Assembly: GCA_028865725.1 (NCBI GenBank)
Contig: JAGWJP010000001.1
Span: 143,143-207,142, forward strand
Direction: 5' to 3'
Length of the DNA stretch: 64,000 bases
DNA from: Patescibacteria group bacterium
GTDB lineage: Bacteria; Patescibacteriota; Minisyncoccia; UBA6257; JACRHW01
Shown: in pieces, positions 25,330-63,553 of the stretch
How the letters are laid out: each line of letters starts with the position of its first letter
Position numbering within the stretch: position 1 is the stretch's first letter
The notes under the pieces: generated by a model
What the model was told of the DNA's origin: nothing
Databases searched by the model: none
What the model saw: the letters and a program-made list of their open reading frames with translations, nothing else
Made by a program: the position numbers and the translations under genes

Positions 25330-25413
25330 ACTGATTCTACTACTTGCGAAAAGAACACCGCTATGCTAGTATAAGTTAGTTCGTTGAAAGCTCCTGGGAC
25401 TTAGGAGGTTGCT

Positions 25414-40650: not shown

Positions 40651-40854
40651 ATGGCAGGCGTACCCACCAAACATCATTCAAAATCAAAAGTAGGACGACG
40701 ACGTTCTCATCTCGCGCTTACCACGCAACAGCTAGTGGTATGCAAAGAATGTGGTGCCGCAATGAGGCCCCATCGTTATTGTGCGAATTGCGGGCACTAT
40801 AAAGGTAAAGAAATCACCTCACGCATTACAAAATTTGTTGAAAAAAAGAAGTAG
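40651..40854 (+). CDS. rpmF: 50S ribosomal protein L32.
   Basis: MAGVPTKHHSKSKVGRRRSH...CKECGAAMRPHRYCANCGHYKG. Confidence 0.9.
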   Translation: MAGVPTKHHSKSKVGRRRSHLALTTQQLVVCKECGAAMRPHRYCANCGHYKGKEITSRITKFVEKKK

Positions 40855-40876
40855 AGACTTTTGATCTTTCTTTGAA

Positions 40877-47250: not shown

Positions 47251-48222
47251 ATGAGTCACATGGAAATGCCGCCCTTACAGGAATCAGGTTTGGAGACGAT
47301 GCGCCGCGCCGCGCAGGAGCTTATTGATCGTGCACACGAGGATATCAACGCATTATATCGACAAGACACTGACAAACCTCTCGAGCGAAGAGAGTATCAC
47401 AACATAGGACACACGAAAGGAGTAGAGAAAAACGCAGAACGTATTTTGCGTACGATCCAAGAAGCCGATTCTTCCCTTGGAGTTACTCCACGCGATGTTA
47501 TTCTCGCACGTCTTATTGCCGCATATCATGATATCGATCAGAGCCAGGATAAGCCGAATGAAGTCAAAGAAAATGTAGAAGGGGAAGAATTAACAAAATC
47601 TCTCCGCAAACGTTTTATCGCGACAATTGAAAAAAATAGCGCCGGAATTCTTCTTGGGCGCATGCAGCAGATGAATGAGGAACAAGGAGAATTATTTACC
47701 GAACATGATAAAGATATCGTGAAAGAAGCGATTCTTGCCACTGTTCCTGGGTTTGATCGAAGTCTGGGCACAGTGACTCAGCCCAACCTTCATGAAGATG
47801 CATCATTTATTACAAAGGCGGTCGCATTGGCAGATCTTGGCGCGATGATGGGGGGTGGTGAAGAGTTTTTGGAAGATGGCAACCGCGTATTTCGAGAGGA
47901 TAATATTGATATTGCAGAGGCTCTTGAACATCCAGAAATGATTGATGAGCGAAAAAAACGTTATTTTGCAACGCGCATACAAAACTGGTATCGCACGCAA
48001 GTCTCGTTTGTGGAAGGACGCCAGCAGATCTTTGAGATTCAGCTTCTTTCATTTCCTGAATCGGTTCGCGACAAGGTAAAAGAGCTTTTTAAGTTCGACG
48101 AGGCGATTGCTGCAGCAAGACAACGCATCGCAGATATTGAGAACGCCACGCAGGCAGGCCGCCCCTACTCATTTGAACAGATGATGGAATCGATGGGGTA
48201 TGCGCTTCCTTCAGCACACTAG
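47251..48222 (+). CDS. HD-motif protein, paralog A (323 aa), function unknown.
   Basis: YHNIGHTKGVEKNAERIL...LIAAYHDIDQ matches the H..H...HD pattern. The protein is colinear with the downstream paralog along its full length. Confidence 0.6.
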   Translation: MSHMEMPPLQESGLETMRRAAQELIDRAHEDINALYRQDTDKPLERREYHNIGHTKGVEKNAERILRTIQEADSSLGVTPRDVILARLIAAYHDIDQSQDKPNEVKENVEGEELTKSLRKRFIATIEKNSAGILLGRMQQMNEEQGELFTEHDKDIVKEAILATVPGFDRSLGTVTQPNLHEDASFITKAVALADLGAMMGGGEEFLEDGNRVFREDNIDIAEALEHPEMIDERKKRYFATRIQNWYRTQVSFVEGRQQIFEIQLLSFPESVRDKVKELFKFDEAIAAARQRIADIENATQAGRPYSFEQMMESMGYALPSAH

Positions 48223-48266
48223 CATAAGCGGCGTTTTCGCGCGCGCGGGGACACTTTTCAGAAGTC

Positions 48267-48344
48267 TTGACTAATCTGCATCTTTAGTGTAGTATCTACT
48301 GCTAGAAAAGGCTCGTAAGAGCCTTTTGAAAAAAAGAAGGAGAG
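48267..48344 (+). promoter_or_regulatory. Promoter (TTGACT, 17-nt spacer, TAGTAT), leader hairpin and RBS. The module is nearly duplicated upstream of lemA at 63472.
   Basis: ttgact at 48267-48272; tagtat at 48290-48295; hairpin AAAAGGCTCgtaaGAGCCTTTT at 48306-48327; RBS gaaggagag. Confidence 0.5.
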
Positions 48345-48351
48345 ACGTAAG

Positions 48352-49332
48352 ATGGCAGAATGTAGGCGGAGACGTCGTAACGTGATTGTCCCACCACCGC
48401 TTTCGTGGGTAGTAATGAAGAATTTAATCAGGAGAGCATATATCGACATTGAAAAAATGTATCCCGGTGAGGGGTGGGCTGGAAACGATCCTTTTGTAGA
48501 GCGCGCATACCACAACATTACGCATACGCACGGTGTTGTGTGGGCTACAGATAAGATCTTGGGAACGATGAGCAACGATCCAAGGAGTGAAATTAATGCA
48601 CGCGGTATTAATCTCGGGTGTCTTATTGCCGCATGTCATGATATCGATCAGCGGCAAGGTGCGCCTACCGCAAGCCATATCAGCTTAGGCGGTCAAATGT
48701 ATACGAAAGAGATGCGCCATCGTTTTGTGGGGCTCATCGAAGAGAATAGCGTTGAGATTTTGCTGGGTCGAATGTGTCAGGAAAACATGACTTATGGCAC
48801 CGAGCTTTTTACCGAAGAGGATATGCGGATTGCGAGAGAGGCAATTTTGGCCACCGTTCCCGGATTTGATCCGGAATTGGGTACCGTGATTCAGCCAAAC
48901 CTGAGTGAAGGCGCATCGTTCATCACGCACGCGCTCGCACTTGCAGATCTGCATGCTGCGATGATGCGCGGAGGGGCTGCTTTTTTGGCAGACGGAAACG
49001 CGGTGTTTCGCGAAGAGAATATTGACGTTGCGAGAACGCTCCTGCGTTCCCCCAATATTTCCCAGGCAGAGAAAGATTTTATCTGTGAGCGCATTATGGC
49101 GTGGTATAGAATGCAGATTCGGTTTGCTGAAGGGCGTAAAATTGTCGTTCAAAAGCAGCTTCTTTGGTTGCCGGAAACGATGCGAGATCCGGTCATGAAT
49201 CTTTTTAAGTTCGATAGGGCGATTGCTGCCGCAAGAAAGCGTGTGAAATCAATTGATGCTAAGGTTCAGGCGGGGTATCCTCCTTCGTTTGAAGAAATGG
49301 TATTGTCTATGGGATATACCGTCATACTTTAG
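48352..49332 (+). CDS. HD-motif protein, paralog B (326 aa), function unknown.
   Basis: YHNITHTHGVVWATDKIL...LIAACHDIDQ. It aligns with paralog A with many identical blocks (ATVPGFD, GTV.QPNL, ASFIT, ALADL, DGN.VFRE.NID, LFKFD.AIAAAR, AG.P.SFE.M..SMGY). Confidence 0.6.
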   Translation: MAECRRRRRNVIVPPPLSWVVMKNLIRRAYIDIEKMYPGEGWAGNDPFVERAYHNITHTHGVVWATDKILGTMSNDPRSEINARGINLGCLIAACHDIDQRQGAPTASHISLGGQMYTKEMRHRFVGLIEENSVEILLGRMCQENMTYGTELFTEEDMRIAREAILATVPGFDPELGTVIQPNLSEGASFITHALALADLHAAMMRGGAAFLADGNAVFREENIDVARTLLRSPNISQAEKDFICERIMAWYRMQIRFAEGRKIVVQKQLLWLPETMRDPVMNLFKFDRAIAAARKRVKSIDAKVQAGYPPSFEEMVLSMGYTVIL

Positions 49333-49370: not shown

Positions 49371-49950
49371 ATAAATAAGATGAGTGCCTTAGGATGGATT
49401 AATGTAGAGAATGATGGATTTTATGTCATGGAAGATTTCCCTCCGGTTCCTTGGTATTTTTGGCTGAATATTCTCGGCGTCGTTTTGTTAATAGGTCTTA
49501 CGATATGGACCTTTTCTCAAATATGACGCCACTCTTTACGCACGTAAAGATTCTAACATACCTTTTCGCGGTGTGTTTTTATTTACAAGCTCCGAGTGGA
49601 TCTGAGGAGATTCCTTCACGAAACGCTCTTGACTAAGAGAATCAAATTTTTGCCCCTCGCCACTTCGCGCTCATATTTTCACCTTTGGTGGACTTGGTAC
49701 GAAACCAGTGGAACGAAATATTGCGAGAATTGGCCGAATGGAATCAGCTCAAGATCGCCCACGAAGCACTGCTTGCTACCAGATAATCACAGTTTAGCCG
49801 ATTTTTCCGAGTTTGTGAATGGAACTAACCGGACACAAACTTAACTCACCGATTTCTGCCCCGTGTTTGCCCCTGGGGCGAGCTTTGTACCGAGAGTAGA
49901 CACCTCGACCATGGCCCACCGGTTTGACCAAAATTGAGAGCCTAAAACGA

Positions 49951-49969
49951 TTTGCTTAACTTAAGCAAA
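49951..49969. repeat. Perfect 9-bp palindrome with a 1-nt spacer (tttgcttaa c ttaagcaaa).
   Basis: Read directly. It is 48 nt upstream of ORF 50017. Confidence 0.4.
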
Positions 49970-50016
49970 TATGACTCCTCGCTGGACTTGTTCCGAGGGC
50001 AAGCGTATGTTCTTGC

Positions 50017-50328
50017 TTGCCTATGAACGAGGACATCGAAGCCGTCCTCCGGGACGCAAAAAATGTACGATTGCCACATCAGCGCGGATCATTCAATCCG
50101 CTATCCTCGCTTCCAGAACCTAAAGCCAAAATCAAACAAGCGATCAAGGAACGAATCAGACTTCTTGCCGGTGCTTATATTTCCCTTGCCGGATTTGTGG
50201 ACGATGACGATATTCGGTTTGCCGAAGCAAATCAGAAATCAGTCAAAACAAAAGCAATATATCAAAAAATTCTCGAGGAGATGGAAACAGCGATTGAGGA
50301 AATAAGGCAGTTTAAAATTATTGATTAA
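50017..50328 (+). CDS. Hypothetical protein (103 aa).
   Basis: ORF only. Confidence 0.35.
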   Translation: MPMNEDIEAVLRDAKNVRLPHQRGSFNPLSSLPEPKAKIKQAIKERIRLLAGAYISLAGFVDDDDIRFAEANQKSVKTKAIYQKILEEMETAIEEIRQFKIID

Positions 50329-51450
50329 TTACTTCAACCCTAAGGCCTTTTCTCCCTGTTCAAAGAGATCGAGAAACTCCCTTGATAGAATGAGCGGTAT
50401 AAATTTTTGCTTATCGCCGTCTGATAATTTTGGGAGAGAATCAATATCCCACGCTTCAAAACCTATTGCCTTGCCGGTTTCTATTTTCAAATCTTTGATA
50501 TCACCATCGAATAAATAAACATATTGGGCCCTGAGAGTATTGTTGGTGAGACCGGTAGCTTCGTCGAAACTCTTTTTTGGCATTGTCTTTACCAATTTCA
50601 GTTTGGCCGGATCAAGAGTGATCCCGGTTTCTTCCAGAGCTTCTTTTAAAGCGGTTGCTTCATATGACATTCCCGGATCTACATGACCACCAACCGTTGC
50701 ATCGAGTTTATCAGGATAGGTATCTTTATCTTTTGCCCGGTGTTGGAAGATTAGCTTGCGATCTGGTGTCATAAACCAAATATGAATTTCTCTGTGAAGC
50801 AATCCTTCTTTGTGGATTTTCTTTCTGTTCTCCAGTCCGATTACTTCGTTCTTTTCATTTACCACCTCAAGCAATTCAATACCTGAAATCCTATCATGCG
50901 CAATCGCAATTAGTCTGTTGAACGGTCCAAAGCCATCATCCGAAGTGATGTGTCCGCCCTTCGGAATGGTTATAACCTCAGATCCGAGAAGCTTTTCAAA
51001 TTTTTCTTTAGTTTTCTCGTATGGCACCCAAGGATCATTATCTCCCAATAAGGTGACCAAGAAGCCCAAATTGCTTCTTACTTTTGCAGTATCGATGGGA
51101 GTCTCTGTCCAAGGTTTTGCGATTGCTTCTGCATCCGGCCCCTCAAGATTTTCAAGATCAAACCAGCCAGCGACAAATATTGCGCCACCAACTTTTATAT
51201 TAATAGTTTGTAGATAGCGCATTATAGTCTGACACCCAATACTATGCCCAATAAAGTATGTATCCTGATCCGGAGTGCCAACGATACGATCAAGAAAGGG
51301 CACCCAATCCTCGATGGTAGGATTTTCAGTATGTGGCAAATCTGGACAGACAACCTCGTAGCCAAGCTTCTTGAATTCTGTGGTTGTCCAAGGCATCCAA
51401 TCCCGATCCGATGCCCCATCCCAACCATGAACAATAATTATTTTTTTCAT
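50329..51450 (-). CDS. Fusion protein: an N-terminal alpha/beta-hydrolase (YdeN/RBBP9-like serine hydrolase) joined to a C-terminal Nudix hydrolase.
   Basis: The N-terminus IIIVHGWDGASDRDW...YFIGHSIGCQ is Ser-hydrolase-like. The Nudix box GGHVDPGMSYEATALKEALEETGI is present. Confidence 0.7.
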   Translation of the reverse strand: MKKIIIVHGWDGASDRDWMPWTTTEFKKLGYEVVCPDLPHTENPTIEDWVPFLDRIVGTPDQDTYFIGHSIGCQTIMRYLQTINIKVGGAIFVAGWFDLENLEGPDAEAIAKPWTETPIDTAKVRSNLGFLVTLLGDNDPWVPYEKTKEKFEKLLGSEVITIPKGGHITSDDGFGPFNRLIAIAHDRISGIELLEVVNEKNEVIGLENRKKIHKEGLLHREIHIWFMTPDRKLIFQHRAKDKDTYPDKLDATVGGHVDPGMSYEATALKEALEETGITLDPAKLKLVKTMPKKSFDEATGLTNNTLRAQYVYLFDGDIKDLKIETGKAIGFEAWDIDSLPKLSDGDKQKFIPLILSREFLDLFEQGEKALGLK

Positions 51451-51860
51451 AAATTTTCTTTGATTTTTTTATAAATTTCCATAAGCACATCTTCAGGAAT
51501 CTTGAAACTATGGTCAGTTTTATAATTATGACCCCACAATTTATCTTCAAAAGTGGTGTTCAGAAATTCCTTTGGTTTTGCATAGCGAGGAATAAAATGT
51601 CCATGCAAATGTCTGGTTTCATTGCCAAGAAAAGCATAATTAAACCAATCTGGCTGAAAAACTTTACTGATCGCATTTTTCAAGTCCGTAAGAACTGAAA
51701 ATAATTCCTGCTGTTCTTCTTGTGTGGCTTCGGTAAGATCAAGAGCATTTTCTCTTTTGCACCAAACCACACATCGTCCTAAATATCCCTGATTTTCGTG
51801 GATATATACAGACCAGTATCTATATTCTTTGATTAAAAATTTTGAGTAGTTATCTGACAT
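51447..51860 (-). CDS. HIT (histidine triad) family nucleotide hydrolase/transferase.
   Basis: HLHGHFIPR histidine triad. It overlaps the downstream gene by 4 nt. Confidence 0.65.
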   Translation of the reverse strand: MSDNYSKFLIKEYRYWSVYIHENQGYLGRCVVWCKRENALDLTEATQEEQQELFSVLTDLKNAISKVFQPDWFNYAFLGNETRHLHGHFIPRYAKPKEFLNTTFEDKLWGHNYKTDHSFKIPEDVLMEIYKKIKENL

Positions 51861-51861
51861 A

Positions 51862-52818
51862 TTAATATGCGGTTGTCCTTGTTAAATGATAGGGCTTGTC
51901 ATCGGGGTATTTCGTTTGAGTATATAGCCAAAGATGATCGTTTATGTCCATAGAAGTGATTCCATCAAACCTTTTTTGAACCTCTTGTTTTATAAACTCA
52001 ACCGCCCAGATCGTATTAGCCCTGATTTCAATTTCTTCCTCGCTGTCATGCGGAATGGGGGTTTTAGAATCGATTTTTTCGGCCAGTGAATCGACATAGG
52101 AGAGAATGCCGAATTTTCTAAGTGCTTGAGGCAATTTATAATCAGCACAAGCGGTGATTTCATTGGCATTTTTGAAATCGCCGGGTCCCTGATGTTTAAA
52201 TAACTGGTAGATATCGGCAATTAAAAGCTGGGCTCTTTTATAAAAATCTATCTCTTTTCCTTTATAAATACTTACGTCTCTAAAAGAAGGGAACGTTTCG
52301 ATAATGAACTCGAGTAAATGAACAGCGTCTTTATTTGCTTGCAAAATAAAATCAGAGAAATTGCCGTTGTTCTTTGCGATCAATGCTTTACCAGTCTCGA
52401 CCATAATGACATGTCGTTCATTAAGCAATGGAATCTCTGAATTACCTCGCAGGATCTCGGCGAGTTCCTGCCTGCTCATTTTAGATCGATAGTCGGCACT
52501 TAAAATATCTCGTCCTTCATCTATGGCTCGCTTGAGTGCAACAATCATTCCCCATGCACCGTCAAATTGCTGATCTTTATAAGTTATCGTCCATTTGGGG
52601 TTGCCCCAATAGCTGAAGCTAAGAGCGTTAAAAACAAATAGAAAGTTAAGTTTGTCATCATCGGATAATTCGGAAAAACCAAACGGGGCGGCTGAGAGCC
52701 AGTGCTGAACGTTGGTATGGTCAAAATTCTTTGCGAATTCCAAAACCTTGTCTTGGTTAATTCGGACAAATTGAGATTGATCGATTACCAACTTAGTTGT
52801 TTCTAAAACTTTATTCAT
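51862..52818 (-). CDS. Uncharacterised protein. It possibly belongs to the DUF2419/queuosine-salvage (QNG1-like) family, but that assignment is tentative.
   Basis: 318 aa with FNALSFSYWGNPKW. The family assignment rests on recollection only. Confidence 0.35.
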   Translation of the reverse strand: MNKVLETTKLVIDQSQFVRINQDKVLEFAKNFDHTNVQHWLSAAPFGFSELSDDDKLNFLFVFNALSFSYWGNPKWTITYKDQQFDGAWGMIVALKRAIDEGRDILSADYRSKMSRQELAEILRGNSEIPLLNERHVIMVETGKALIAKNNGNFSDFILQANKDAVHLLEFIIETFPSFRDVSIYKGKEIDFYKRAQLLIADIYQLFKHQGPGDFKNANEITACADYKLPQALRKFGILSYVDSLAEKIDSKTPIPHDSEEEIEIRANTIWAVEFIKQEVQKRFDGITSMDINDHLWLYTQTKYPDDKPYHLTRTTAY

Positions 52819-53138
52819 AGTGTTTCAATAGGATAAATATCGAAAGCAACCTCCTCGTAAGGATGAACCGCTTTCACTTTTTTAATTACTTCGTCCAAAA
52901 TGGATCGAGGAACGACTGCTTCGATCCGCTCTTCTTCGACCGATTCATAGTTTCCACTTTTACCGATAGCTGGGTGAGAATTTTCATTGCCACGATAACG
53001 TCCGATACCTCTGGATGAAAAAGAACAAAAATCATAATTGCCGACTTTACCAGCACCGGCTTCTCCAAGTGTCTGTCTTACAATATCAGCATGGGATAAT
53101 GGAACAAACACTACTAATTTCACATCTTCTGTTTTCAT
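52815..53138 (-). CDS. Small protein (107 aa) resembling the PII-like insert domain of NIF3/YqfO proteins.
   Basis: ...HPYEEVAFDIYPI C-terminal motif. It starts 12 nt after the stop of the PHP-ATPase and overlaps the next gene by 4 nt. Confidence 0.4.
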   Translation of the reverse strand: MKTEDVKLVVFVPLSHADIVRQTLGEAGAGKVGNYDFCSFSSRGIGRYRGNENSHPAIGKSGNYESVEEERIEAVVPRSILDEVIKKVKAVHPYEEVAFDIYPIETL

Positions 53139-53149
53139 TGTTTTATAAA

Positions 53150-56029
53150 TTAATCTGGAAAACTATATTTTTGTTCGCGTTTTTGAAATGCCTCTTTGCC
53201 ACCCTCGAGTATCTCGCAGACATGCTGTCTAATCCCTTTGCGATACAAGATTGCTGGTTCTTGCTCGGCATTGAACTCGAAAGTATTTTCAAGAGCACCT
53301 GACACATATTCAAATCTGTATTTTTTATTATCGCGCCCGATCTCTTGACCGGCTTGGTTCGCGACAATTGTCTCCTCCGAATCTGCACCGACTACAAGGT
53401 TTGGATTATGCGTAACAATAATGATTTGCCTCTGCAATTTTTTCTTTTTCAGAAAGTCTACAAGATCATCGTATACAGAACGGTTGTCGAGATCGTCTTC
53501 GGGCTGATCGAGAAGTATAGGCCATTCTTCATTGCTCAAATTTATGAGCAATTGAAGCAACACGAGGCCTTTCTTTCCGGGAGACATTTTATCAAGCGAA
53601 TCGTTTTTGTAGAAAATTCTAAAATCCAGGAAAAAATAATTATCTAGCAACTTTGTCGAGGCATCTTTTGCTTGGCGATTCTTGACTGTGTTAATAGTGC
53701 CACCAACTAATCCTTCGAATACCGTTGTGATATTAGCAAGGTGCTTTGCTGGGTCATATTTATAAATAAATTCGTCGCCCCACTCAGCTTCGACAATTAC
53801 ACGCTTCAGATCGTGTTTATTTATATATTCCTTGACCACGTCGGAATTAAAAATATCGTCATTAAAACTTACATGGACTCCGAGTGTGATATCTCCAAAT
53901 TTACTCTCAAATTTCTTGAATTCATTCCGCAGGTTTTCGTACTTAGCGACAATCTGCTTATAGGATTCAATGATGCTGTCGGTCTTCTTTTTATGAGACG
54001 CTTTTTTGGTCTTCAGATTATTTCTCTTTATTGCTATTTCGTTCAATTTTTGTTGCTCTTTCTTGATAGCGTCTGTTTTCTCTTGTAACTCTGATTGCAA
54101 TTGGATTTTCGCAAGTAATGGTGCAAGCTCTGCTTTTATCCTTGTCATTTCCGCATTATGAACTTTAAGCTTTGCATCTATCGTGGTGATAAGGTTGAGC
54201 GTGGCAGTTTTTAGCCCAGGTTCGAAAGAATCAATTACTTTTAATTCGCTCTTAAACTTCGTTTTTATGTCGGCGTCATTCAAATACTCTTCGCATTCGT
54301 CTGCGGTTGTTCGCAATGATTCGACTTGAGAAATCAGGCTAGTATTTAAATTCTTTATGGTCTTTTTATCCTCTTCGAGATTTGAAACCTGTGCATTGAT
54401 TTCCTTTTCCTTTGCCACTAATCCCTCATACTGTTTGAGCTGTTCATCGGTCAGACCCGATTTTGCCTTGATAGCATCTGCCTGATTTTGAAGCGTTTTA
54501 ATATAACTCTCTATACCTTTCTCATCCCCTGCCTGTTTCAACTCCTCCTCGGTCTTTCCGATATCGTTGCGATCCAAAAATAACTCATTGATTGCAGTTG
54601 GGATAGACTTAGCTTCAGCTTTTATTTCTCGAAGGGTCTCCTCATATTTTTCTTTTACCGCTGGATCTTGCAAGATCACGTTGAGTACGAACTCATTCAG
54701 GGCCTCACGGCTCTTAATATTGGCTTCCGAAAGTGTATTCAGGTAACGCTGTGGTATATAAAGGATTTTACGTTCTTTTGATTCTTCTTCCGCTGATCCC
54801 TCCGGAACCCGAAGCAGAGTGTGCTGGCCGTCTTTCCATGTGACTTCGAAATTGAAATCCACCGAGTTATCAAAATCGTATTTGACCGGAACCCCGCTGT
54901 CTGAAGTACGACTTTTAACTTCCTGCTGGTCGATCGTTTTGGCCATGTAATAAAGCAGGAGAGATTTACCCGTAGATTTTCCACCGATAATGGTGGTCAG
55001 GTTCTGATTCACTTCTATAGGATCACTTCCAAATTTTGCATCACTTGTATTATCCAAAAAACGGACTTTGTCTATGACGAAATATGACTTTTTCTCCTCC
55101 GGTTTCTGGGGTCCGACAAAAATGCGCTGATCAGATTCGAAGACTATCTGTTTAAGACCTTCGAACGTTGGATCGGCTTTAATCCAAAGGAAGTTACCGT
55201 CTTGATCAGCTTTACCAAGATCACGCAATGATCTGGCGTCCGAGCTTATATGAGAACAAAACTTTGAGGTAAGCGACGTGTTAGTTTTGATATAGTCAGA
55301 GACGGAAGCTGATGACTGTTGACGCTGAGACTGCAAAAGGTTCATCTTTTGATAATTAAAGATATCAGCCAAGTGTGTCCGATCAGTCGCCGTACGTTCT
55401 TGGAAAAGACCGTTACTGCTGTTGCAATGAGGATAAATTATAATCCCTCCGTTTCTTTTGACTTCGTCTATGATTTCCTTGATATCAGTGCTTGTGGTCG
55501 TGAGAACTCCTTGGCTGTTTGTCCGGTTATTGATATTGAATTTTGTTAGAAACGCTTGAATGCCGGCAGAAAATGTAGACTTTTGGTACAGCTTGTCCGA
55601 AAAGAATAACAACATGTGAATGCCTTGGCAGTTGATCTCTACACCAGGGATGATTTTACAACGAGACTCTTTTGAATACTCTATGAACGTATCGAGCAGG
55701 CAATCGTCAAAATAATTATGATCGGTTATGCCTATACAATCTAAGTCGGGATTGAAGGTATCGAGAAAAGCAAAATAATTCCTGATGTGATTCACGCACC
55801 TATCGTTTTTTGTAATTTGAGCATTATTAAAATAAACCTTCGAGTCGTAGAGCAAGGCATTTTCTTCGCCCCCAACCTTAGCGATGTACTGTTGCCAAGC
55901 TGTCGGGTTAGCCGACTTTAATTCCTCTGAATAGTTTGCGAGAGGGATATAGTTGTCGTCCAAAATGGTCTGTGTTTGCAGGTCCCACTTTCTCCATATC
56001 GAACCTTTTGGATAAGGAAAATTATTCAT
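53150..56029 (-). CDS. 959-aa fusion of an N-terminal PHP-family phosphoesterase, a long coiled coil and a split ABC/SMC-type ATPase. It is a candidate defence effector.
   Basis: PHP-like His/Asp motifs CIGITDHNYFDD, IIPGVEINCQGIHMLLFF and IIIYPHCNSSNG. Walker A TTIIGGKSTGKSLL. About 350 aa of heptad-like K/E-rich sequence. Signature-like MSPGKKGLVLLQLL. Walker B PILLDQPEDDLD. H-loop IIIVTHNP. Confidence 0.75.
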   Translation of the reverse strand: MNNFPYPKGSIWRKWDLQTQTILDDNYIPLANYSEELKSANPTAWQQYIAKVGGEENALLYDSKVYFNNAQITKNDRCVNHIRNYFAFLDTFNPDLDCIGITDHNYFDDCLLDTFIEYSKESRCKIIPGVEINCQGIHMLLFFSDKLYQKSTFSAGIQAFLTKFNINNRTNSQGVLTTTSTDIKEIIDEVKRNGGIIIYPHCNSSNGLFQERTATDRTHLADIFNYQKMNLLQSQRQQSSASVSDYIKTNTSLTSKFCSHISSDARSLRDLGKADQDGNFLWIKADPTFEGLKQIVFESDQRIFVGPQKPEEKKSYFVIDKVRFLDNTSDAKFGSDPIEVNQNLTTIIGGKSTGKSLLLYYMAKTIDQQEVKSRTSDSGVPVKYDFDNSVDFNFEVTWKDGQHTLLRVPEGSAEEESKERKILYIPQRYLNTLSEANIKSREALNEFVLNVILQDPAVKEKYEETLREIKAEAKSIPTAINELFLDRNDIGKTEEELKQAGDEKGIESYIKTLQNQADAIKAKSGLTDEQLKQYEGLVAKEKEINAQVSNLEEDKKTIKNLNTSLISQVESLRTTADECEEYLNDADIKTKFKSELKVIDSFEPGLKTATLNLITTIDAKLKVHNAEMTRIKAELAPLLAKIQLQSELQEKTDAIKKEQQKLNEIAIKRNNLKTKKASHKKKTDSIIESYKQIVAKYENLRNEFKKFESKFGDITLGVHVSFNDDIFNSDVVKEYINKHDLKRVIVEAEWGDEFIYKYDPAKHLANITTVFEGLVGGTINTVKNRQAKDASTKLLDNYFFLDFRIFYKNDSLDKMSPGKKGLVLLQLLINLSNEEWPILLDQPEDDLDNRSVYDDLVDFLKKKKLQRQIIIVTHNPNLVVGADSEETIVANQAGQEIGRDNKKYRFEYVSGALENTFEFNAEQEPAILYRKGIRQHVCEILEGGKEAFQKREQKYSFPD

Positions 56030-56034
56030 AAATA

Positions 56035-56832
56035 CTAAAGAATTACAGTCACTTTTTCATAAAGCATAGGCCAGCTATCCTGACGCATTCTAAATTTAGT
56101 ACCGTGGTTATGACCACTGCGAGCATCGAAGTCGACGAGAATCTTTGCTTCTTCAATAGCTTTCAAAAATCCTTCAAAGCTGAATTTTTGAAGCATCATA
56201 ACCTTATTGTATTTGTAATATTCCTTACCTCGGACAGTTTTGACCTCTGCCTGAACATAAAAACTATTCAAAAGTTTTGTACCGGCCTTATGTTCAAGAT
56301 CATCAAAACCCCAATATGGCTGTGGATTAAGTTCGCCAAGTCCTACTCGTTCCTTTACCACCTTAAGCCATTCGGCGTGTCGGATGTCCACGCTCTTCGC
56401 ATCAAATGATATTAAGACTTTCTTTTCGGTCCGATCGATTTTTACCATAAAACCACGATCGCTACGTGTAAGACCATGAATAGTCTGTCGAAAACTCATC
56501 TCACCTTTTGGATACTTCTTGCCATCTTCCTGATGCGCCCAACCATATTTCGGTAAAAGAACTTGTGGCACAAAACGAATAGCTCTGGGGGAGGGTTCAA
56601 TGTGAAATAAAGTACAAAGAGAAGTTGAATTCAATCGTTGGGCTTTTAATTCCCATTCGGCCGCATTTGGAATAGGTAGATTATTTTCTTTGATTCCGAG
56701 TAAGTCTTCGAGAGTATTCCCGATACCGCCGTGATTGCCCTTGCGAGCATTAGGAACCCACCCCATATTGGCAATCTCTTTTAATTTTTCAATAAGGGCC
56801 GGCTTTGTGTAAATTTTCGGTTTGTTTGGCAT
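56035..56832 (-). CDS. Putative Type II restriction endonuclease (by recollection, MvaI/BcnI-like).
   Basis: Immediately downstream of the MTase. Start moved from the listed TTG (56913, overlapping the MTase by 77 nt) to the ATG at 56830-56832 (MPNKPKIYTK), 4 nt after the MTase stop. The family call is tentative. Confidence 0.5.
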   Translation of the reverse strand: MPNKPKIYTKPALIEKLKEIANMGWVPNARKGNHGGIGNTLEDLLGIKENNLPIPNAAEWELKAQRLNSTSLCTLFHIEPSPRAIRFVPQVLLPKYGWAHQEDGKKYPKGEMSFRQTIHGLTRSDRGFMVKIDRTEKKVLISFDAKSVDIRHAEWLKVVKERVGLGELNPQPYWGFDDLEHKAGTKLLNSFYVQAEVKTVRGKEYYKYNKVMMLQKFSFEGFLKAIEEAKILVDFDARSGHNHGTKFRMRQDSWPMLYEKVTVIL

Positions 56833-56836
56833 ATCT

Positions 56837-57658
56837 TTATAAAAGTTTTTGTTGGGCTTTATGGTTTTTAATTCTCTTCTCGGCCATCTCGCAATACTCC
56901 GGCGAAAGATCAATACCGATATAATGCCGGTTAAAATTTATTGCAGAAAGTGCGGTAGTACCAGAACCCATAAATGGGTCCAGAATAATTTTCGCATTGG
57001 TAGACGACACAATACGATCTATAAGATTTACAGGGAAAGCGGCTGGATGTTCGTTATTCATCTCCTGTGTAAATTCCCATACGTCACCGTGGCCACTTGC
57101 CTTAGGTGATAATTTAAATTTAGGTTTGGCGATAAGATAGATCACTTCGTATGTCGGCACAAAGTAACCGGGGTTAAAATTGAAACCGCCCTTTCTTCTC
57201 CAAATTATTATCTGGCGCACAGGAAAGCCACTTACAATATCCTGCCGATCCTGCAAAACACCTCCTTGTACGCGCCATTTATGATTGTAGAAAATCGCAC
57301 CATCTTCAGGAATAATCCTCATCATCTCCGCCAAGCATTCACGTTGCCATTTCACATACTCATCATGAGGCATACAGTCGTTATGGTGGGAGTAACCTTT
57401 TTGAAGTGCGGCATTTGCCCATTTACCACCACGGCCATCTTTCATGCCATTACCTGTAGAATTTTTAAGATTATAGGGTGGCGAAGTCACTATTAAATCA
57501 ACCGAGCCATCAGGTATTTTTTTCATGATATCAACTGCATTACCGCAGATGATTTTATTTAAAAAGTGATTAGGATATTCTAACTTCATAACCTTAGATT
57601 TAATGGGGCTCGTCTTTATTTTTACTTGAGTTTCCATATTATTTTGAATGCTTTTCAT
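56837..57658 (-). CDS. Beta-class DNA amino-methyltransferase (N4-cytosine or N6-adenine).
   Basis: Motif IV DLIVTSPPY precedes motif I FMGSGTT, which is the beta-class order. Confidence 0.85.
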   Translation of the reverse strand: MKSIQNNMETQVKIKTSPIKSKVMKLEYPNHFLNKIICGNAVDIMKKIPDGSVDLIVTSPPYNLKNSTGNGMKDGRGGKWANAALQKGYSHHNDCMPHDEYVKWQRECLAEMMRIIPEDGAIFYNHKWRVQGGVLQDRQDIVSGFPVRQIIIWRRKGGFNFNPGYFVPTYEVIYLIAKPKFKLSPKASGHGDVWEFTQEMNNEHPAAFPVNLIDRIVSSTNAKIILDPFMGSGTTALSAINFNRHYIGIDLSPEYCEMAEKRIKNHKAQQKLL

Positions 57659-57842
57659 TTTTCTTTTTTACGTTACTCGTCTCCTCAAGAAAGGTGTTGA
57701 GGTCTGATTGTTTGATCCGCCAAACCCCCAACTTAGACGCTTTTAATCTACCGGACTCGATATATCGGGTTACGGTGCGAGTATGTACTCGTAATATTTC
57801 GGCAATTTCCTCAATGGTAAAAAGTTTTTCGATTTCGTTCAT
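57639..57842 (-). CDS. Small HTH DNA-binding protein (excisionase/MerR-type HTH). It may be the R-M controller.
   Basis: FTIEEIAEILRVHTRTVTRYIESGRLKASKLG..WRI. It overlaps the MTase start by 20 nt. Confidence 0.65.
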   Translation of the reverse strand: MNEIEKLFTIEEIAEILRVHTRTVTRYIESGRLKASKLGVWRIKQSDLNTFLEETSNVKKKNEKHSK

Positions 57843-58003
57843 AAAAATAAATTAAGTCGTTGGTATCATTTTACCGCTTTCAGATTTCGTTGTCAAAATT
57901 GCCGGTTTTTGTCATAATGTACTTATGAGCTAATCTGATAAAGTTTAGTGAATGGGAGACATAAAATAGGTCCGATTCACTAAAATTTGATTAATCGGCT
58001 TGA

Positions 58004-58026
58004 GTTATTCGAAAATTTCGAATAAC
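58004..58026. promoter_or_regulatory. Perfect 11-bp-arm palindrome (gttattcgaaa a tttcgaataac) just upstream of ORF 58038. It is operator-like.
   Basis: Read directly from the sequence. Confidence 0.45.
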
Positions 58027-58037
58027 TGCATAAAAAA

Positions 58038-58721
58038 ATGAGTATGAAAATGAAAAAGGTCGCCAAGACCACCGAGTACAAATTTAATATAAGAAAACCG
58101 GTTGAGTTTATGTCCACTTACCGGCTATCAGTGGCTACCACTGAAAAGATTTTGCGGTTATCGATGAAATCAGCTGGCATAACCGACAGCGTTCAGATAA
58201 TAAAACACAATCAACCAGCTATCGGGCTTCTAACGAAAGAAATCATCGAAACCAAGCTCGAGGTAAAGAGTATCCGGTCCCTTTTAGAACGCCGAACTAG
58301 CAAATTTGAAGGGTTAACCGAATATGATCAGCATTTTATAAATACATTTGCCAAAGTGGCCGCAATTTCTTTCGCTGAATATTTTTCTCAAGGCAAAACC
58401 AAACCAGTATTAAACCAGACAATTCTCCACTTGTCGGCCGAGGCAGATTTATACCGTGAGCCGAAAAACAAGTATTGCTACCCTATGGGCAAAGAGCAGT
58501 CGCGTCACCAGATAGTTAAATACTTGATTGGCAAAGGATATCAAGCCACACCGGATATTCGCATGGCAACCAGTGCCAAAAGCGACTCATCCGTCCGTTC
58601 AGCAATCATGAAAATAAACGCTAAAGCCAAGCACGACCTAGAAATAGAGAAGAAATTGATTGAGGGCCGTCGCACTGGTGGTTACCGCATCAATCCAGAA
58701 TACAGAATTTTCTTGAAGTGA
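58038..58721 (+). CDS. Hypothetical protein (227 aa), first gene of a phage/plasmid-like module.
   Basis: ORF; a terminator lies downstream. Confidence 0.45.
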   Translation: MSMKMKKVAKTTEYKFNIRKPVEFMSTYRLSVATTEKILRLSMKSAGITDSVQIIKHNQPAIGLLTKEIIETKLEVKSIRSLLERRTSKFEGLTEYDQHFINTFAKVAAISFAEYFSQGKTKPVLNQTILHLSAEADLYREPKNKYCYPMGKEQSRHQIVKYLIGKGYQATPDIRMATSAKSDSSVRSAIMKINAKAKHDLEIEKKLIEGRRTGGYRINPEYRIFLK

Positions 58722-58758
58722 CGCTCGTAGTCCTCAAGTAATGTTAATAACTTTTCCG

Positions 58759-58787
58759 AAACGCTCACAAAATGGGCGTTTTTTGTT
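58759..58787 (+). terminator. Intrinsic terminator.
   Basis: AACGCtcacaaaatggGCGTTtttttg. Confidence 0.45.
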
Positions 58788-58848
58788 TGCCAAAATTTAT
58801 CCGCGGACTATTTAAGGCATAGCGGGTCGTTCGCTACGATAAACGCAT

Positions 58849-59064
58849 ATGTTAAGCGTTGAGCGAGTCAAACAATTAGCGAACGATCCCACTCTCTCTG
58901 ATAAGCAAATCGAGGAAATCAGAGACGGCTTTTATATGCTCTCACAAGTGATCTTTGAACAGTGGCAAGCCGAGAGAAACAAGGCTAAAGAAGCTGAGCA
59001 AAAAGATAATAAGAAAATTAATAATCAAAATGAATATGAAAAACCAACCGGACAACAGCAGTAA
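58849..59064 (+). CDS. Hypothetical small protein (71 aa).
   Basis: ORF only. Confidence 0.35.
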   Translation: MLSVERVKQLANDPTLSDKQIEEIRDGFYMLSQVIFEQWQAERNKAKEAEQKDNKKINNQNEYEKPTGQQQ

Positions 59065-59296
59065 TTTTATCACCAGCGACTTCTACGTAGCCGCTTTTTT
59101 GCTCGCTAGCAAATATAAGCTTGTCGGCATAAACAAAACTGACATTCGTCGGTTTCGTTTTGTTTTTGTTGATCAGCCGGGACGGGTCCAATTCGTGGAA
59201 GGATATTTTTTAGGTTATACCGACGTGAATGTTAAAGAATTCGTCTCAGCGATTAAGGAACTCAAATCGCTGATGTATAACGACGCGATCAGTTGA
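59030..59296 (+). CDS. Hypothetical small protein (about 88 aa), overlapping the previous ORF by 35 nt.
   Basis: Internal ATG of listed ORF 58955..59296. Translation: MNMKNQPDNSSNFITSDFYVAAFLLASKYKLVGINKTDIRRFRFVFVD.... Confidence 0.4.
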   Translation: MNMKNQPDNSSNFITSDFYVAAFLLASKYKLVGINKTDIRRFRFVFVDQPGRVQFVEGYFLGYTDVNVKEFVSAIKELKSLMYNDAIS

Positions 59297-59315
59297 AAAT
59301 AACTGAATATGAAAT

Positions 59316-60089
59316 ATGGAAAATCTGCCATTCGAAATAGATAACAATGATTACGTAAAGCTTCCCCGAAGCATCAAGACCGCCCTTGTGGACGGCTATT
59401 TGAGTTTTGAGGAATACTCGGTCCTTGTCTGGCTGTGGATCAATGCCAATCCCCGGATCGGCAAAGCCCATGTAAGCTACGCCGGCCTTTCCAAAGACTT
59501 CAAGGAAAAATACTCCAAGAATCACATCAACCGGCTGATGTTAAACCTAAAGTTCAAGAAGTGGATATGGTTTCCAGTACAGCAAGGTCGCAGAAGTTCG
59601 TTCCATGTTGATATCGCCAATTATCCTTTATCTAACGGTGGTTTTGTTGAGCTTGAGAAGCGTATCAAACAGAAGTCCGGCAGAAGTGAAAGTGATACTG
59701 GTACACAATTACCAACAGAAGTGTCGACAGAAGTCAGCGACGTTCGGCAGAAGTTGGAAAGCGACAAAAATGCTTTGGTAGATAGGTTTTCGTTCGGTTC
59801 AGAAAGTTCGCTCGGCAGAAGTTCCAAAAACGACAACGAGAATGAAAATAAAAACAACCGATCGAATCGTGGTCGACCCGTAAGAGAATTTACCCCCAAG
59901 TCTTACGAGGAACAGAAATGCTGGGAGATAGCTCAAAAGTTGGGAGAAAAAGACATGACCTTCATCCTCTCAGCTCTCAAAAAATACGGACTGACAAGAA
60001 TTGAGGAAGCTTACCGGTCAGTCATGGATCAACCGAGCGAGAAAATCCGAAGCCGAGGTGCGTATTTTAATCGTCTACTAAATTTGTAA
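59316..60089 (+). CDS. Putative replication initiation or replisome-organiser-like protein. It has a wHTH N-terminus and a DnaD-like C-terminus. The call is tentative.
   Basis: The N-terminus LVDGYLSFEEYSVLVWLWINAN is HTH-like. A low-complexity acidic/Ser linker follows. The C-terminus CWEIAQKLGEKDMTFILSALKKYGLTRIEEAYRSV is helical. Confidence 0.35.
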   Translation: MENLPFEIDNNDYVKLPRSIKTALVDGYLSFEEYSVLVWLWINANPRIGKAHVSYAGLSKDFKEKYSKNHINRLMLNLKFKKWIWFPVQQGRRSSFHVDIANYPLSNGGFVELEKRIKQKSGRSESDTGTQLPTEVSTEVSDVRQKLESDKNALVDRFSFGSESSLGRSSKNDNENENKNNRSNRGRPVREFTPKSYEEQKCWEIAQKLGEKDMTFILSALKKYGLTRIEEAYRSVMDQPSEKIRSRGAYFNRLLNL

Positions 60090-60090
60090 C

Positions 60091-60588
60091 ATGCCCAAGC
60101 TCACATACCTAAGACCAAAACATAAACGAGCCATAGAAATGAAATGGCAGGGTTCTCAGTACAAAGAAATTGCCAACGAGTTTGGAGTCTCGATTGATAC
60201 GGTTAAGTTTTGGTTTAGAGCGAAAGGTTTTTTGAGAGAAGCCTATAGTAAATACAGAGGCGAGCAAATTCTGAACAGGGATATTCAGGAAAAACAAGAA
60301 CGAATAAAAGCACTTACCGGCAATGGTTCGCATCAGGGCACAACGGACATCATAAATTCTTTGAGTCTTCCGATCCGTAAAATGTTCCAAAAGTTACCGG
60401 TGAAAGAAAAAGACGCTGTAATGGAACGATTCTATGAATTGAATCGGGAGTCCGAGGAGAGATTTAATAACTACACTAAACGGCACCAACTCACACCAAA
60501 TGACACCAAAAATGAGAAAGAAATAAATACACTTACACCCAATAAGCCCCCAAATAAGCCACCGAACCGTGCAAAACCATGCGAATAA
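60091..60588 (+). CDS. HTH-domain protein (sigma-70 region-4 or terminase-small-subunit-like).
   Basis: KRAIEMKWQGSQYKEIANEFGVSIDTVKFWFRAKG. Confidence 0.45.
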   Translation: MPKLTYLRPKHKRAIEMKWQGSQYKEIANEFGVSIDTVKFWFRAKGFLREAYSKYRGEQILNRDIQEKQERIKALTGNGSHQGTTDIINSLSLPIRKMFQKLPVKEKDAVMERFYELNRESEERFNNYTKRHQLTPNDTKNEKEINTLTPNKPPNKPPNRAKPCE

Positions 60589-60761
60589 CTACACTTAAAT
60601 ACAACAAAATGCAGTTAATTACAGCGTTTGAGCAAAATAAATGGAGATAAATAGTGATAAATGGTGTTTTTTGGAGAAAAATCCGAGACTGTGGGCAACT
60701 CGAGCTTAGCTTGTCCACCAAAATAGCGTATGTTGTGTGTTGAGAAATCTCTGCGAAAAAT

Positions 60762-62357
60762 ATGATGAAAGGAATTATTTACACAAGAGTATCAAGCGAT
60801 GAACAGGTCAAAGGTACCTCGCTGGAACACCAAGAGGAACTTTGCCGGAAATACTGCAAAGACAAAGGCATCGAAGTCGATGTGGTTTTCCGTGAGGAAG
60901 GAGAAAGTGCAAAAGACCTGAGCTTGCAGAATCGCAAAAGGTTTCTGGAAGCTCTTGAGTTCTGTCGCAAGAACAAAGACAAGGTCCAGGCCTTTGTGGT
61001 TTTGCGCGTGGATAGATTTGCCCGTAATGCCGATGACCATTTTGCTATTAGAAAAATCCTAGCGACGTATGGCACAACACTGCATTCAGTCACCGAACCG
61101 ATCGGAAATGAGCCGGTAGCTAAGCTTTTGGAAACATTCCTTGCCGGTATTGCTGAATTTGATAACGCCATCAGAAAACAAAGATGCAGTGATGGAATGC
61201 TTGCCAGAATCAACCAAGGTATCTATCCATGGAAACCGCCGATCGGTTATAAATGCGTTAACTTCAAAAAGCACGGCGAGAAAAAGACCCACGCCGATCC
61301 GCCCCACGAGCAGATATTCCCGATTATCCAAAGAGGACTGAAAGAATTCGCTCAGGGTCTGCACTCGCAAAGCGAGCTGATGAGAAAACTGGACGAATGG
61401 GGTCTTAAGGATTTGACCGGAAAGAAAAGCACGCCCCAGCTTGTAAGCCGATTAGTGACCAACTACCTAAAGTTTTATGCCGGCATAATTACCAATCCGT
61501 GGACAGGCAAAGATGTTGAGGGCCAGCATATTCCGATGATTACCAAAGACGAGATGTATCAAATCAAAATGATCCTGACCGGTAAAAAGAGATTGGTGGC
61601 TAAATACAACATCTTCAATCCAGACTTTCCGCTTAGACGAACCGTAACCTGCGCTGTTTGCGGACGACCGCTGACCGGAAGCGCGCCTCGAGGCGGAATG
61701 GGAGGACGATATAACTATTACCACTGCGGAAATAAGAACTGCCGGGTATTTGGTAAAAGCACACCCAAGCTGGAATTGGAAAAGATGTTTTTTGAATATT
61801 TAGAGAGAGTTACTCCCAAACAAGCGTTCCTCGATATTTTCAAGGAAAGCGTGATTGATATTTGGAAAGAAAAAGGCCAGAGGTTTGAAATGGAAGCCGA
61901 GAAGTGGAAAAAGAAGCTGGAAACGCTTGAGGCAAAGAAAAAACGCATCTACGAAATGCGAGAGGACGGTTCATATACCAAAGAGGAGTTTGTGGAACGG
62001 AAAGATGAAATTGAGAACGAGATATCAACCACCAGAATATTATCCAACGAAGCCCGAATCGAGCAGTTCGATATTGAAGGATCAGTCATTTATGCGACCA
62101 AGTTCATAAGCAACCTCGGCCGACAATGGTTCGACCTTGTGCCACACTTACAGCCCAAGTTCCAGAAACTAGTCTTCCCAGAAGGAATACCGTTTGAATG
62201 GAAAAAAGGATTTGGAACTGCCAAATTAGCAGTCATTTACGAGATGAATCGGGAATTCTCGACTGAAAATTCCGCTTTGGTGGACCTAGCGAGAATCGAA
62301 CTCGCGTCTCTACAATGCGAATGTAGCGTCTTGCCACTGGACCATAGGCCCAAATGA
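60762..62357 (+). CDS. Large serine recombinase (phage-integrase type).
   Basis: The resolvase catalytic domain IIYTRVSSDEQ carries the catalytic Ser. A recombinase domain and zinc ribbon CAVCGRPLTGS...YYHCGNKNC follow. The last 25 codons are antisense to tRNA-Ala. Confidence 0.85.
   Translation: MMKGIIYTRVSSDEQVKGTSLEHQEELCRKYCKDKGIEVDVVFREEGESAKDLSLQNRKRFLEALEFCRKNKDKVQAFVVLRVDRFARNADDHFAIRKILATYGTTLHSVTEPIGNEPVAKLLETFLAGIAEFDNAIRKQRCSDGMLARINQGIYPWKPPIGYKCVNFKKHGEKKTHADPPHEQIFPIIQRGLKEFAQGLHSQSELMRKLDEWGLKDLTGKKSTPQLVSRLVTNYLKFYAGIITNPWTGKDVEGQHIPMITKDEMYQIKMILTGKKRLVAKYNIFNPDFPLRRTVTCAVCGRPLTGSAPRGGMGGRYNYYHCGNKNCRVFGKSTPKLELEKMFFEYLERVTPKQAFLDIFKESVIDIWKEKGQRFEMEAEKWKKKLETLEAKKKRIYEMREDGSYTKEEFVERKDEIENEISTTRILSNEARIEQFDIEGSVIYATKFISNLGRQWFDLVPHLQPKFQKLVFPEGIPFEWKKGFGTAKLAVIYEMNREFSTENSALVDLARIELASLQCECSVLPLDHRPK
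62278..62351 (-). tRNA. tRNA-Ala (CGC) with G3:U70 and encoded CCA.
   Basis: On the minus strand: gggccta/taggtcc acceptor with the G3-U70 wobble, which is the Ala identity element; anticodon arm ctaca-uuCGCau-tgtag; T-arm gcgag-ttcgatt-ctcgc; discriminator A; CCA. Confidence 0.8.
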
Positions 62358-62684
62358 ATGGATTTGTGAAAATATGAATGAAGAACAAGGTGCGCATGCG
62401 ATGCAGTACCGCGTTACTGCGGACCGCACATATAATTTTATTTGTAGCACAGAATTTTTTTCTTATCTAGTATTTTCTTGTCAGGCTTGTCACGTTTTAT
62501 ACACGACACTTCAATTCACAGATATCCACATCGTTTCTATTTTATTCGCTTGTTTCCTGTGCTATAGTGATTGCAAGACAGTATCTCTTGTTTGAGAGGG
62601 ACACTAAAGGTCGTAATGTGTATTATGTGTATCCCTGCTTTTCTGTGATATGTCGTACATCACATAAAAGAATTTCCAGGGCTT

Positions 62685-63401: not shown

Positions 63402-63425
63402 GACCGTTTGTTACGAAAAAGCAAA

Positions 63426-63455
63426 CAAACCCGCCTGAAAAGGCGGGTTTGTTGG
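63426..63455 (+). terminator. Hairpin terminator.
   Basis: CAAACCCGCCtgaaaaGGCGGGTTTGttgg. Confidence 0.5.
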
Positions 63456-63471
63456 TGTTCAGCGGAAAAGC

Positions 63472-63553
63472 TTGACTAATTCATATTTTTGTGTAGTATA
63501 TATCACGAAGGCTCGCAAGAGTCTTTTGAAAAAAGAAAAGGAGGATCTGAATT
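63472..63553 (+). promoter_or_regulatory. Promoter (TTGACT, 16-nt spacer, TAGTAT), leader hairpin and RBS for lemA. It is a near-duplicate of the element at 48267.
   Basis: ttgact at 63472-63477; tagtat at 63494-63499; hairpin AAGGCTCgcaaGAGTCTT at 63508-63528; RBS aaaggagg. Confidence 0.5.

Follow-up and report, generated by a model that had tools for sequence, protein, structure and literature searches.

The stretch of DNA analysed here (the window, 64 kb of a Patescibacteria MAG with locus tags KGI50_, on a 462,897-bp contig; the genome has also been assembled as GCA_028868355.1) carries one promoter-plus-leader cassette of ~85 bp, with a small RNA hairpin, which is common to two unrelated genes. 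Copy A (48266–48351, on the plus strand, as are all features below unless stated otherwise) lies upstream of the HD-like gene HD-B (48352–49332), and copy B (63471–63553) lies upstream of lemA (63554–64000, cut by the window end). The preliminary description had placed the two copies there, and both are present. It had also called the two downstream genes unrelated, and this is confirmed by their products, one of which is a LemA protein (PF04011, E = 6e-36) and the other a 326-aa protein without a Pfam match. To our knowledge, almost nothing has been learned by experiment about how gene expression is controlled within the tiny genomes of Patescibacteria (Candidate Phyla Radiation, CPR).

Results

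Organization of the two copies

The blocks common to copies A and B are CTTGACTAAT, GTGTAGTAT and AAGGCTCG(T/C)AAGAG(C/T)CTTTTGAAAAAA...GGAG, and the spacers between these blocks have diverged. In copy A, the –35 hexamer TTGACT (48267–48272) is within the conserved block CTTGACTAAT (48266–48275) and the –10 hexamer TAGTAT (48290–48295) is within GTGTAGTAT (48287–48295), with a 17-nt spacer between the hexamers. The leader hairpin AAAAGGCTC-GTAA-GAGCCTTTT (48306–48327) has 9 pairs, and its first base lies 10 nt past the –10 hexamer. Next come an A-rich tract without pairing (G, A7, GAA) and the Shine–Dalgarno sequence (SD) GGAG (48339–48342), which together span 48328–48342, and the ATG start codon of HD-B is at 48352. 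The A-rich tract and SD of copy A, with the TT that precedes them, form a generic TTGAAAAA..GGAG ribosome-binding site (RBS) context. In copy B, the –35 hexamer TTGACT (63472–63477, in the block CTTGACTAAT at 63471–63480) and the –10 hexamer TAGTAT (63494–63499, in the block GTGTAGTAT at 63491–63499) are separated by a 16-nt spacer; the leader hairpin GAAGGCTC-GCAA-GAGTCTTT (63507–63526) begins 7 nt past the –10 hexamer and has 8 pairs, two of which are G.U, and it is followed by unpaired T, G, A6, G, A4 and the SD GGAGG (63540–63544), together 63527–63544. The ATG of lemA is at 63554, and the deposited annotation, with a 198-aa product (P0027), starts at the second ATG (63560). A distance of 16–17 nt had been given between cttgactaat and gtgTAGTAT; the true gap is 11 and 10 nt, and 16–17 is the spacing of the hexamers.

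Two positions of the hairpin differ between the copies. From A to B, the stem undergoes a single C-to-T transition that gives a G.U pair, and a T-to-C change falls at the N position of the GNRA loop (GTAA to GCAA). In addition, copy A has a spacer longer by 4 nt, mostly absorbed by an A-U extension of the stem; this stem has one pair more than that of copy B, with a basal A.U in place of copy B's G.U.

A sigma-70-type promoter was defined by a TTGACA-like and a TATAAT-like hexamer that are separated by 16–18 bp and precede a gene of the same strand. Both TTGACT-17-TAGTAT (A) and TTGACT-16-TAGTAT (B) have this arrangement, with 9/12 matches each, both appear in the list of the consensus scan, and the two are accordingly classed as predicted promoters. 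That they deviate from consensus in the same way indicates common descent. Another promoter-like site with a TAGTAT hexamer, TTGCGA-17-TAGTAT, is found at 25330–25413 of the window, where a leader hairpin, CUCCU-GGGACUU-AGGAG, would pair the SD of an 87-aa ORF at 25414.

Extent and pattern of the similarity

The resemblance had been judged to exceed chance, and it does: even when three mismatches are permitted, the 25-nt pattern of the hairpin turns up in the window only at copies A and B, with 0 occurrences expected (100 shuffles). Self-BLAST of the window gave a shared core of just 36 nt. Because the flanks of A and B do not align, a segmental duplication including neighbouring DNA is ruled out, and the homology is confined to the promoter-to-RBS stretch. 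A dispersed repeat (REP or MITE-like) was also rejected, as the 64-kb window has no more than two copies and the 10 kb downstream of lemA have none, and the copies bear no marks of a mobile element, i.e. no terminal inverted repeats, target duplication or further copies.

About 28 of 90 aligned columns differ between A and B, 2/34 among the functional columns and 26/56 elsewhere (hypergeometric P ~3e-5); these counts are approximate, the alignment having been made by hand with one row a column short. The 34 functional columns (–35 hexamer, –10 hexamer, 18-nt hairpin and SD) were set in advance. For the hairpin alone, 2/18 columns are changed, compared with 26/56 in the remaining columns (Fisher P = 0.01), and the hairpin block is thus indeed better conserved than the spacers, which are near random. 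Stem, GNRA loop and flanking U4-G-A6 are the same in A and B at 25/27 positions. By our own count, ~20% of possible single substitutions and ~50% of transitions in such a hairpin are harmless, so that the two hairpin differences taken alone are weak evidence.

HD paralogs and the interval between the copies

Immediately upstream of copy A lies HD-A (47251–48222, 323 aa), which has a weak PF01966 match (E = 1.5e-4) and is the ortholog of a gene that is single-copy in relatives. HD-B (326 aa) is its lineage-specific tandem paralog, 51% identical to it, with copy A as its predicted promoter. The name 'HD' given to HD-B by the preliminary description is not borne out by Pfam, which finds no HD domain in this protein and only the weak match in HD-A. 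The HD family has 26 detectable members, the nearest at 49–51% identity in a thinly sampled lineage. The single-copy homologs of two relatives, P0003 and P0004 (L007 and L009), are 57–59% identical to HD-A and 49% identical to HD-B. Since these homologs are closer to HD-A than to HD-B, HD-B is, judging from protein identities, a derived, faster-evolving, lineage-specific tandem duplicate. The leader motif is absent upstream of P0003 and P0004 and upstream of HD-A.

Between the two copies, the DNA at 49400–62400 has a lower GC content (0.39–0.42 versus 0.45–0.47). It encodes a Ser_hydrolase–NUDIX fusion, HIT, Q_salvage, an SMC-like protein of 959 aa, HTH_17, DUF5659 and a serine recombinase, and also a restriction–modification pair composed of an MvaI/BcnI endonuclease and an N4/N6 methyltransferase. 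The syntenic locus L007 is without this 49.4–62.4 kb block, and its HD and MS-channel genes are ~1 kb apart. Its absence from this syntenic locus gives the block the look of an integrated element; most of the 15 kb between the copies is then secondary, and they would have been ~2 kb apart before the insertion. We considered whether the copies could be duplicated attachment sites and rejected this, as there are no att-like direct repeats at the borders of the block and the copies are not at these borders. At its 3' end, the ORF of the serine recombinase (60762–62357) crosses a tRNA-Ala(cgc) gene on the minus strand (62278–62351), an overlap at which the element may have integrated. The same MAG has one assembly with a break at ~60.3–60.5 kb. 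In L007, at 7350–7700, between the neighbourhood of the HD gene and the MS-channel gene, two copies of a ~25-nt inverted-repeat pair (ggtggaccccgttagaRgtaga ... tctaacggggtggac) flank tRNA-like fragments.

The lemA locus and its counterparts in relatives

Copy B is preceded by an MS_channel_1st_1 gene (62718–63401) and, between this gene and the cassette, by a terminator-like hairpin (63424–63453) that is conserved in relatives and for which the terminator scan reports the full 13-pair stem on the minus strand and a 5-pair version (63433–63448) on the plus strand. A TPM_phosphatase gene lies 3' of lemA. The MS_channel_1st_1 protein is 77–81% identical within a small clade (81% in L017), much better conserved than LemA, and it served as the handle for fetching orthologous loci. 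The nearest foreign LemA, also from L017, is 66% identical over its full length. The second-closest one, P0029 (L032), was set aside, since it belongs to an AT-rich organism that is unrelated and in which the upstream structure is different.

The terminator hairpin, AAACCCGC...GCGGGTTT, follows the MS-channel gene in all the orthologous loci that were fetched, and after it a related promoter is found in L017, L019/L020, L021 (TTGACT) and L007 (TTGACA), with GTGT preceding the –10-like hexamer in several relatives. What lies downstream of this promoter varies: lemA, a TPM fusion, a 121-aa protein, a Zip transporter or RNA-like regions. L017 (L018 is identical) is the only relative with lemA at this position, in the same MS-channel to lemA order. 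Its leader reads terminator, TTGACTAAA-N14-TATTAT, 10 nt, AAGGCU-GAAA-GGCCUU, UGACAACAAAAAAGGGAGG (A-rich, with GGAGG), 8 nt and ATG. A GNRA hairpin is kept at the same position before this lemA ortholog, in line with the preliminary description, which had taken the hairpin for a functional one. In the covariance alignment the loop-closing C-G pair is lost symmetrically in L017, leaving the stem one pair shorter, and the AAGGC and GCCTT halves are 13 bp apart in A and B and 11 bp apart in L017. The A/B hairpin is absent at the MS-channel relatives P0149 to P0153 and P0162, where the orthologous terminator and promoter are kept. In L022 and L021 the orthologous promoter is used without a comparable hairpin, and so this promoter can do without one.

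Two side observations were made on these loci. In L007 (8720–8990), the orthologous promoter is followed by a G-rich leader of ~250 nt, structured-looking, before a gene for a Zip-family metal transporter, and this leader could be a riboswitch-like element. LemA and TPM_phosphatase genes are also found 3' of the MS-channel gene in L019 (5827–9130) and L016 (3904–4635), with PspA/IM30 in L019, which suggests that the MS-channel/LemA/TPM_phosphatase/PspA neighbourhood forms a membrane-stress module in the clade.

Folding of the leader RNAs

On the sense strand, the hairpin has a predicted energy of –13.4 kcal/mol (z = –4.2) in copy A, –9.6 kcal/mol (z = –2.5) in copy B and about –7 kcal/mol in L017. 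The hairpin does not arise on the minus strand of copy B, and for both B and L017 the antisense strand folds less well than the sense strand. One hairpin dominates the predicted ensemble in leaders A and B. In the centroid structures, the SDs of A, B and L017 remain free of pairing, which leads us to reject an SD-sequestering switch (a fourU or ROSE-like thermometer). SD sequestration by the pyrimidine-rich 3' arm, which the predicted ensembles do not favour, was likewise rejected, and a leader peptide was discarded because the leaders have no plausible start codon with an SD.

The stems have 9 (A), 8 (B) and 6 (L017) pairs, and the loops, GUAA, GCAA and GAAA respectively, are all of the GNRA type, with variation confined to the N position. 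The two stem transitions, C to U in B and A to G in L017, each produce a G.U pair on the sense strand where the opposite strand would have C.A, so wobble changes are tolerated on the sense strand only; the chance that both transitions would be compatible with sense-strand wobble is 0.25. Over the three hairpins, 22/23 pair cells (95.7%) are standard pairs, and 3 pairs vary on one side. Two-sided changes are found at 0/8 pairs in the three sequences, with n=3 sequences making covariation shuffles uninformative, so covariation gives the structure no statistical support. The stem change that had been called compensatory is therefore a single wobble-compatible transition, no pair being changed on both sides. 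Nevertheless, four weaker indications, namely the GNRA loops, the sense-only wobbles, the paired loss in L017 and the 13- versus 11-bp spacing of the halves, make it likely that the conserved element is a sense-strand RNA hairpin. The stem core AAGGC...GCCUU is kept in sequence as well, so that a factor binding this RNA by its sequence could have a place here; such conservation would likewise agree with a binding site of specific sequence or with copying that took place fairly recently. The earlier proposal of a functional RNA hairpin thus stands as far as the non-chance similarity, the GNRA hairpin at the L017 lemA gene and the sense-strand bias are concerned; it draws nothing from covariation, and a specific RNA function is something that we infer.

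Searches for further copies

A covariance model (R1) was built from copies A and B. In the window it recovers, besides these two, the reverse strand of the copy A palindrome (16 bits) and 40820–40858 (21 bits), the latter rejected since it matches by its A-run only and has no stem. Within this interval, TTGAAAAAAAGAAGTAGAGAC (40838–40858) is identical to copy A (48326–48346) at 20/21 positions, with no hairpin upstream; the L32 gene has its 3' end here (stop codon at 40852–40854), directly before nusB. Over the relatives' loci, L017 is the sole credible match and the best foreign one (18.7 bits). No further hairpin copies were found in ~74 kb of the genome (the window and 10 kb downstream of lemA) and none beyond L017 in ~60 kb of the fetched loci of relatives by the kind of covariance search that the preliminary description had proposed. 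As far as could be seen, the hairpin is not a genome-wide or clade-wide motif.

The Rfam scan of the window at gathering thresholds returned 3 tRNAs only, and a permissive Rfam scan of 48230–48400 returned only noise (11.5–13 bits versus thresholds of 39–80). The exact hairpin pattern GGCTCGNNAGAGNCTTTTGAAAA has 4 matches in GTDB species genomes, 6 in metagenome contigs and 0 in viral contigs; these scans demand an exact match, to which diverged forms such as that of L017 are invisible. All GGCTCGNNAGAGNCTTTTGAAAA matches are in unrelated contexts (coding regions or other terminators, for example), with no promoter upstream. A near-identical hairpin, GGCTCGAAAGAGCC followed by TTTT, is present on an unrelated Athalassotoga plasmid, without a comparable promoter context.

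The part of the cassette downstream of the hairpin is of another kind. TTGAAA is found within 45 nt upstream of 7/72 start codons in the window, where ~2 would be expected. Relatives likewise have TTGAAA..GGAGG-like leaders, both where a comparable hairpin is lacking (L022 and L021) and where a small, unrelated stem is present (L019). TTGAAA(A) followed by GGAG(G), as seen in the window, L019, L021 and L022, may be the RBS context typical of the clade. The preliminary description had considered that the motif might be just a common promoter/RBS consensus; this turns out to be so for the downstream TTTTGAAAAAA..GGAG, which is generic in the genome and in the clade, and not for the hairpin, which is specific.

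Discussion

Origin of the cassette

The comparison with relatives bears on which copy came first. Promoter and hairpin are kept at the lemA gene of L017, which indicates that the lemA copy is ancestral, and the loci compared here show copying in the direction from lemA to HD-B. The cassette would first have driven lemA and, within this lineage, would have been copied to the front of the new duplicate HD-B. As far as the data reach, we regard it as a real, local and fairly ordinary expression signal, confined to this lineage and to its lemA ortholog.

Possible role of the hairpin

A plausible though tentative reading is that the cassette is a promoter whose mRNA begins in a stem-loop that protects the message or sets its expression, followed by an open A-rich region for ribosome loading. 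The first paired base lies 10 (A), 7 (B) and 10 (L017) nt after the –10 hexamer; transcription usually starts 6–8 nt past this hexamer, so in all three leaders the stem would be at the predicted 5' end or within ~4 nt of it. The transcript would probably start 0–4 nt before a stem-loop of 6–9 pairs with a GNRA tetraloop. This hairpin would act as a 5'-terminal stem-loop limiting 5'-end-dependent decay (of the pyrophosphohydrolase, RNase J or RNase E type), the limited decay would set a high expression level common to HD-B and lemA, and the unpaired A-rich tract and free SD would give efficient ribosome loading. A stable sense-strand hairpin, as a 5'-terminal stabilising stem-loop calls for, is predicted in A, B and L017. 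Both the transcription start and the stabilising function are what we infer from predicted positions and folds, and a start more than ~5 nt upstream of the stem would make the protective model weaker.

The same features can be read in other ways. The hairpin might be a functionless passenger of a recent copying of the promoter-to-RBS stretch by illegitimate recombination or gene conversion, the uneven distribution of differences then reflecting chance in part and, for the rest, selection acting on promoter and RBS only. There are indeed just two copies in the genome region seen, without two-sided covariation, the contrast between hairpin and spacers is modest (P = 0.01) and other relatives use the orthologous promoter without the hairpin. 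It is the L017 locus that makes a passenger unlikely, as the hairpin persists there before lemA despite 66% LemA identity and diverged spacers, the paired deletion and the wobble change preserve the fold, and the loop is still GNRA. Persistence in L017 of the core AAGGC...GCCUU with a GNRA loop, together with 25/27 conserved positions in stem, loop and U4-G-A6 against near-random spacers, and with two stem changes that both favour the sense strand, would agree with a different role, that of a sequence-specific RNA site for a regulatory protein or ribonuclease, HD-B and lemA then forming a small post-transcriptional regulon. We consider such a site improbable, since there is no candidate binding protein, no more sites were found in ~74 kb of the genome or in the relatives' loci, no collection scanned with exact patterns gave a match in a related context, and the stem length varies among the copies (9, 8 and 6 pairs).

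Two further readings place the activity of the repeat in transcription. As a DNA operator, the inverted repeat would bind a dimeric repressor just past the start site and co-regulate both genes. The half-sites are conserved in sequence, and in copy A they form a perfect 9+9 palindrome at approximately +1 to +25, the classic operator position; in copy B, by contrast, one half-site is asymmetric (GAGTC) and the minus strand does not fold, and the half-sites of L017 are closer together by 2 bp (11 instead of 13 bp), which a hairpin tolerates and a dimeric DNA site would not. Symmetric half-sites at a fixed spacing, as expected of a palindromic operator, are thus not found across A, B and L017, both substitutions keep RNA pairing on the sense strand only, and an operator appears highly doubtful. 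Still less credence can be given to the idea that hairpin and U-run form a promoter-proximal intrinsic terminator, i.e. an attenuator aborting most transcripts unless overridden. A GC-rich stem followed by UUUU would suit this role, as would the near-identical hairpin with TTTT on the Athalassotoga plasmid, but neither copy is in the terminator-scan list, as the 8 bases that follow the stem include fewer than 5 T, the U's of copy A pair with upstream A's, a U-tract is missing past the stem of L017, and no alternative antiterminator fold competes with the one hairpin that dominates the ensemble. Attenuation, which the preliminary description had listed among the possible functions, is consequently a poor fit.

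A more far-reaching form of regulation can be imagined, in which a putative RNA-binding regulator or ribonuclease of the clade recognises the hairpin by its GNRA loop and AAGGC/GCCUU stem and thereby ties the membrane-stress module (the MS-channel-like protein, LemA and TPM, with PspA in relatives) to an HD-family paralog, HD proteins being a phosphohydrolase family. We view this as a long shot; if true, such a dedicated post-transcriptional regulon would be a first for these reduced genomes.

The cassette opens no new class of element. It offers a small, clean case of a new paralog gaining expression signals by reuse of the promoter–leader cassette of a neighbouring gene, and the architecture of its leader, in which a GNRA stem-loop placed at the predicted 5' end precedes an A-rich tract and an SD, is testable in a heterologous host. 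Its practical value is modest: a defined CPR promoter and 5' UTR part, and a candidate co-expressed gene pair.

Relation to known systems

Small stem-loops with a GNRA fold near a promoter are also known from phage lambda boxB and other protein-bound GNRA-type hairpins; unlike lambda boxB, the leaders described here have no boxA-like partner, N-like protein or antitermination context. With intrinsic terminators and leader attenuators they share a GC-rich stem followed by U residues, and they differ from these in their short stem, in the four U's that are partly paired with upstream A's, in the lack of a U-tract in the ortholog and in the lack of an antiterminator. The protective stem-loop that we tentatively favour has closer counterparts. 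As outlined in PMC3997798 and the references cited there, bacterial mRNAs such as ompA, papA and aprE are protected by 5'-terminal stem-loops, and RppH requires at least 2 unpaired 5' nt (PMC3997798). Like the leaders of E. coli ompA and papA and of B. subtilis aprE, the cassette has a short stable hairpin predicted at or near the 5' end, after which come a stretch free of structure and an SD open to ribosomes, and no alternative fold is needed. Unlike in these leaders, to which it has no sequence relation, the start and the role in mRNA half-life are here predicted only, and the GNRA loop and sequence-level conservation of the stem exceed what simple 5' protection needs. As to its origin, the copy shows no terminal inverted repeats, target duplication or further copies that would mark a mobile element, and the cassette resembles other cases of promoter duplication or capture in that one promoter-to-RBS unit is found both at the ancestral lemA gene, as in L017, and at the duplicate HD-B gene, with a homology that stops at the borders of the cassette.
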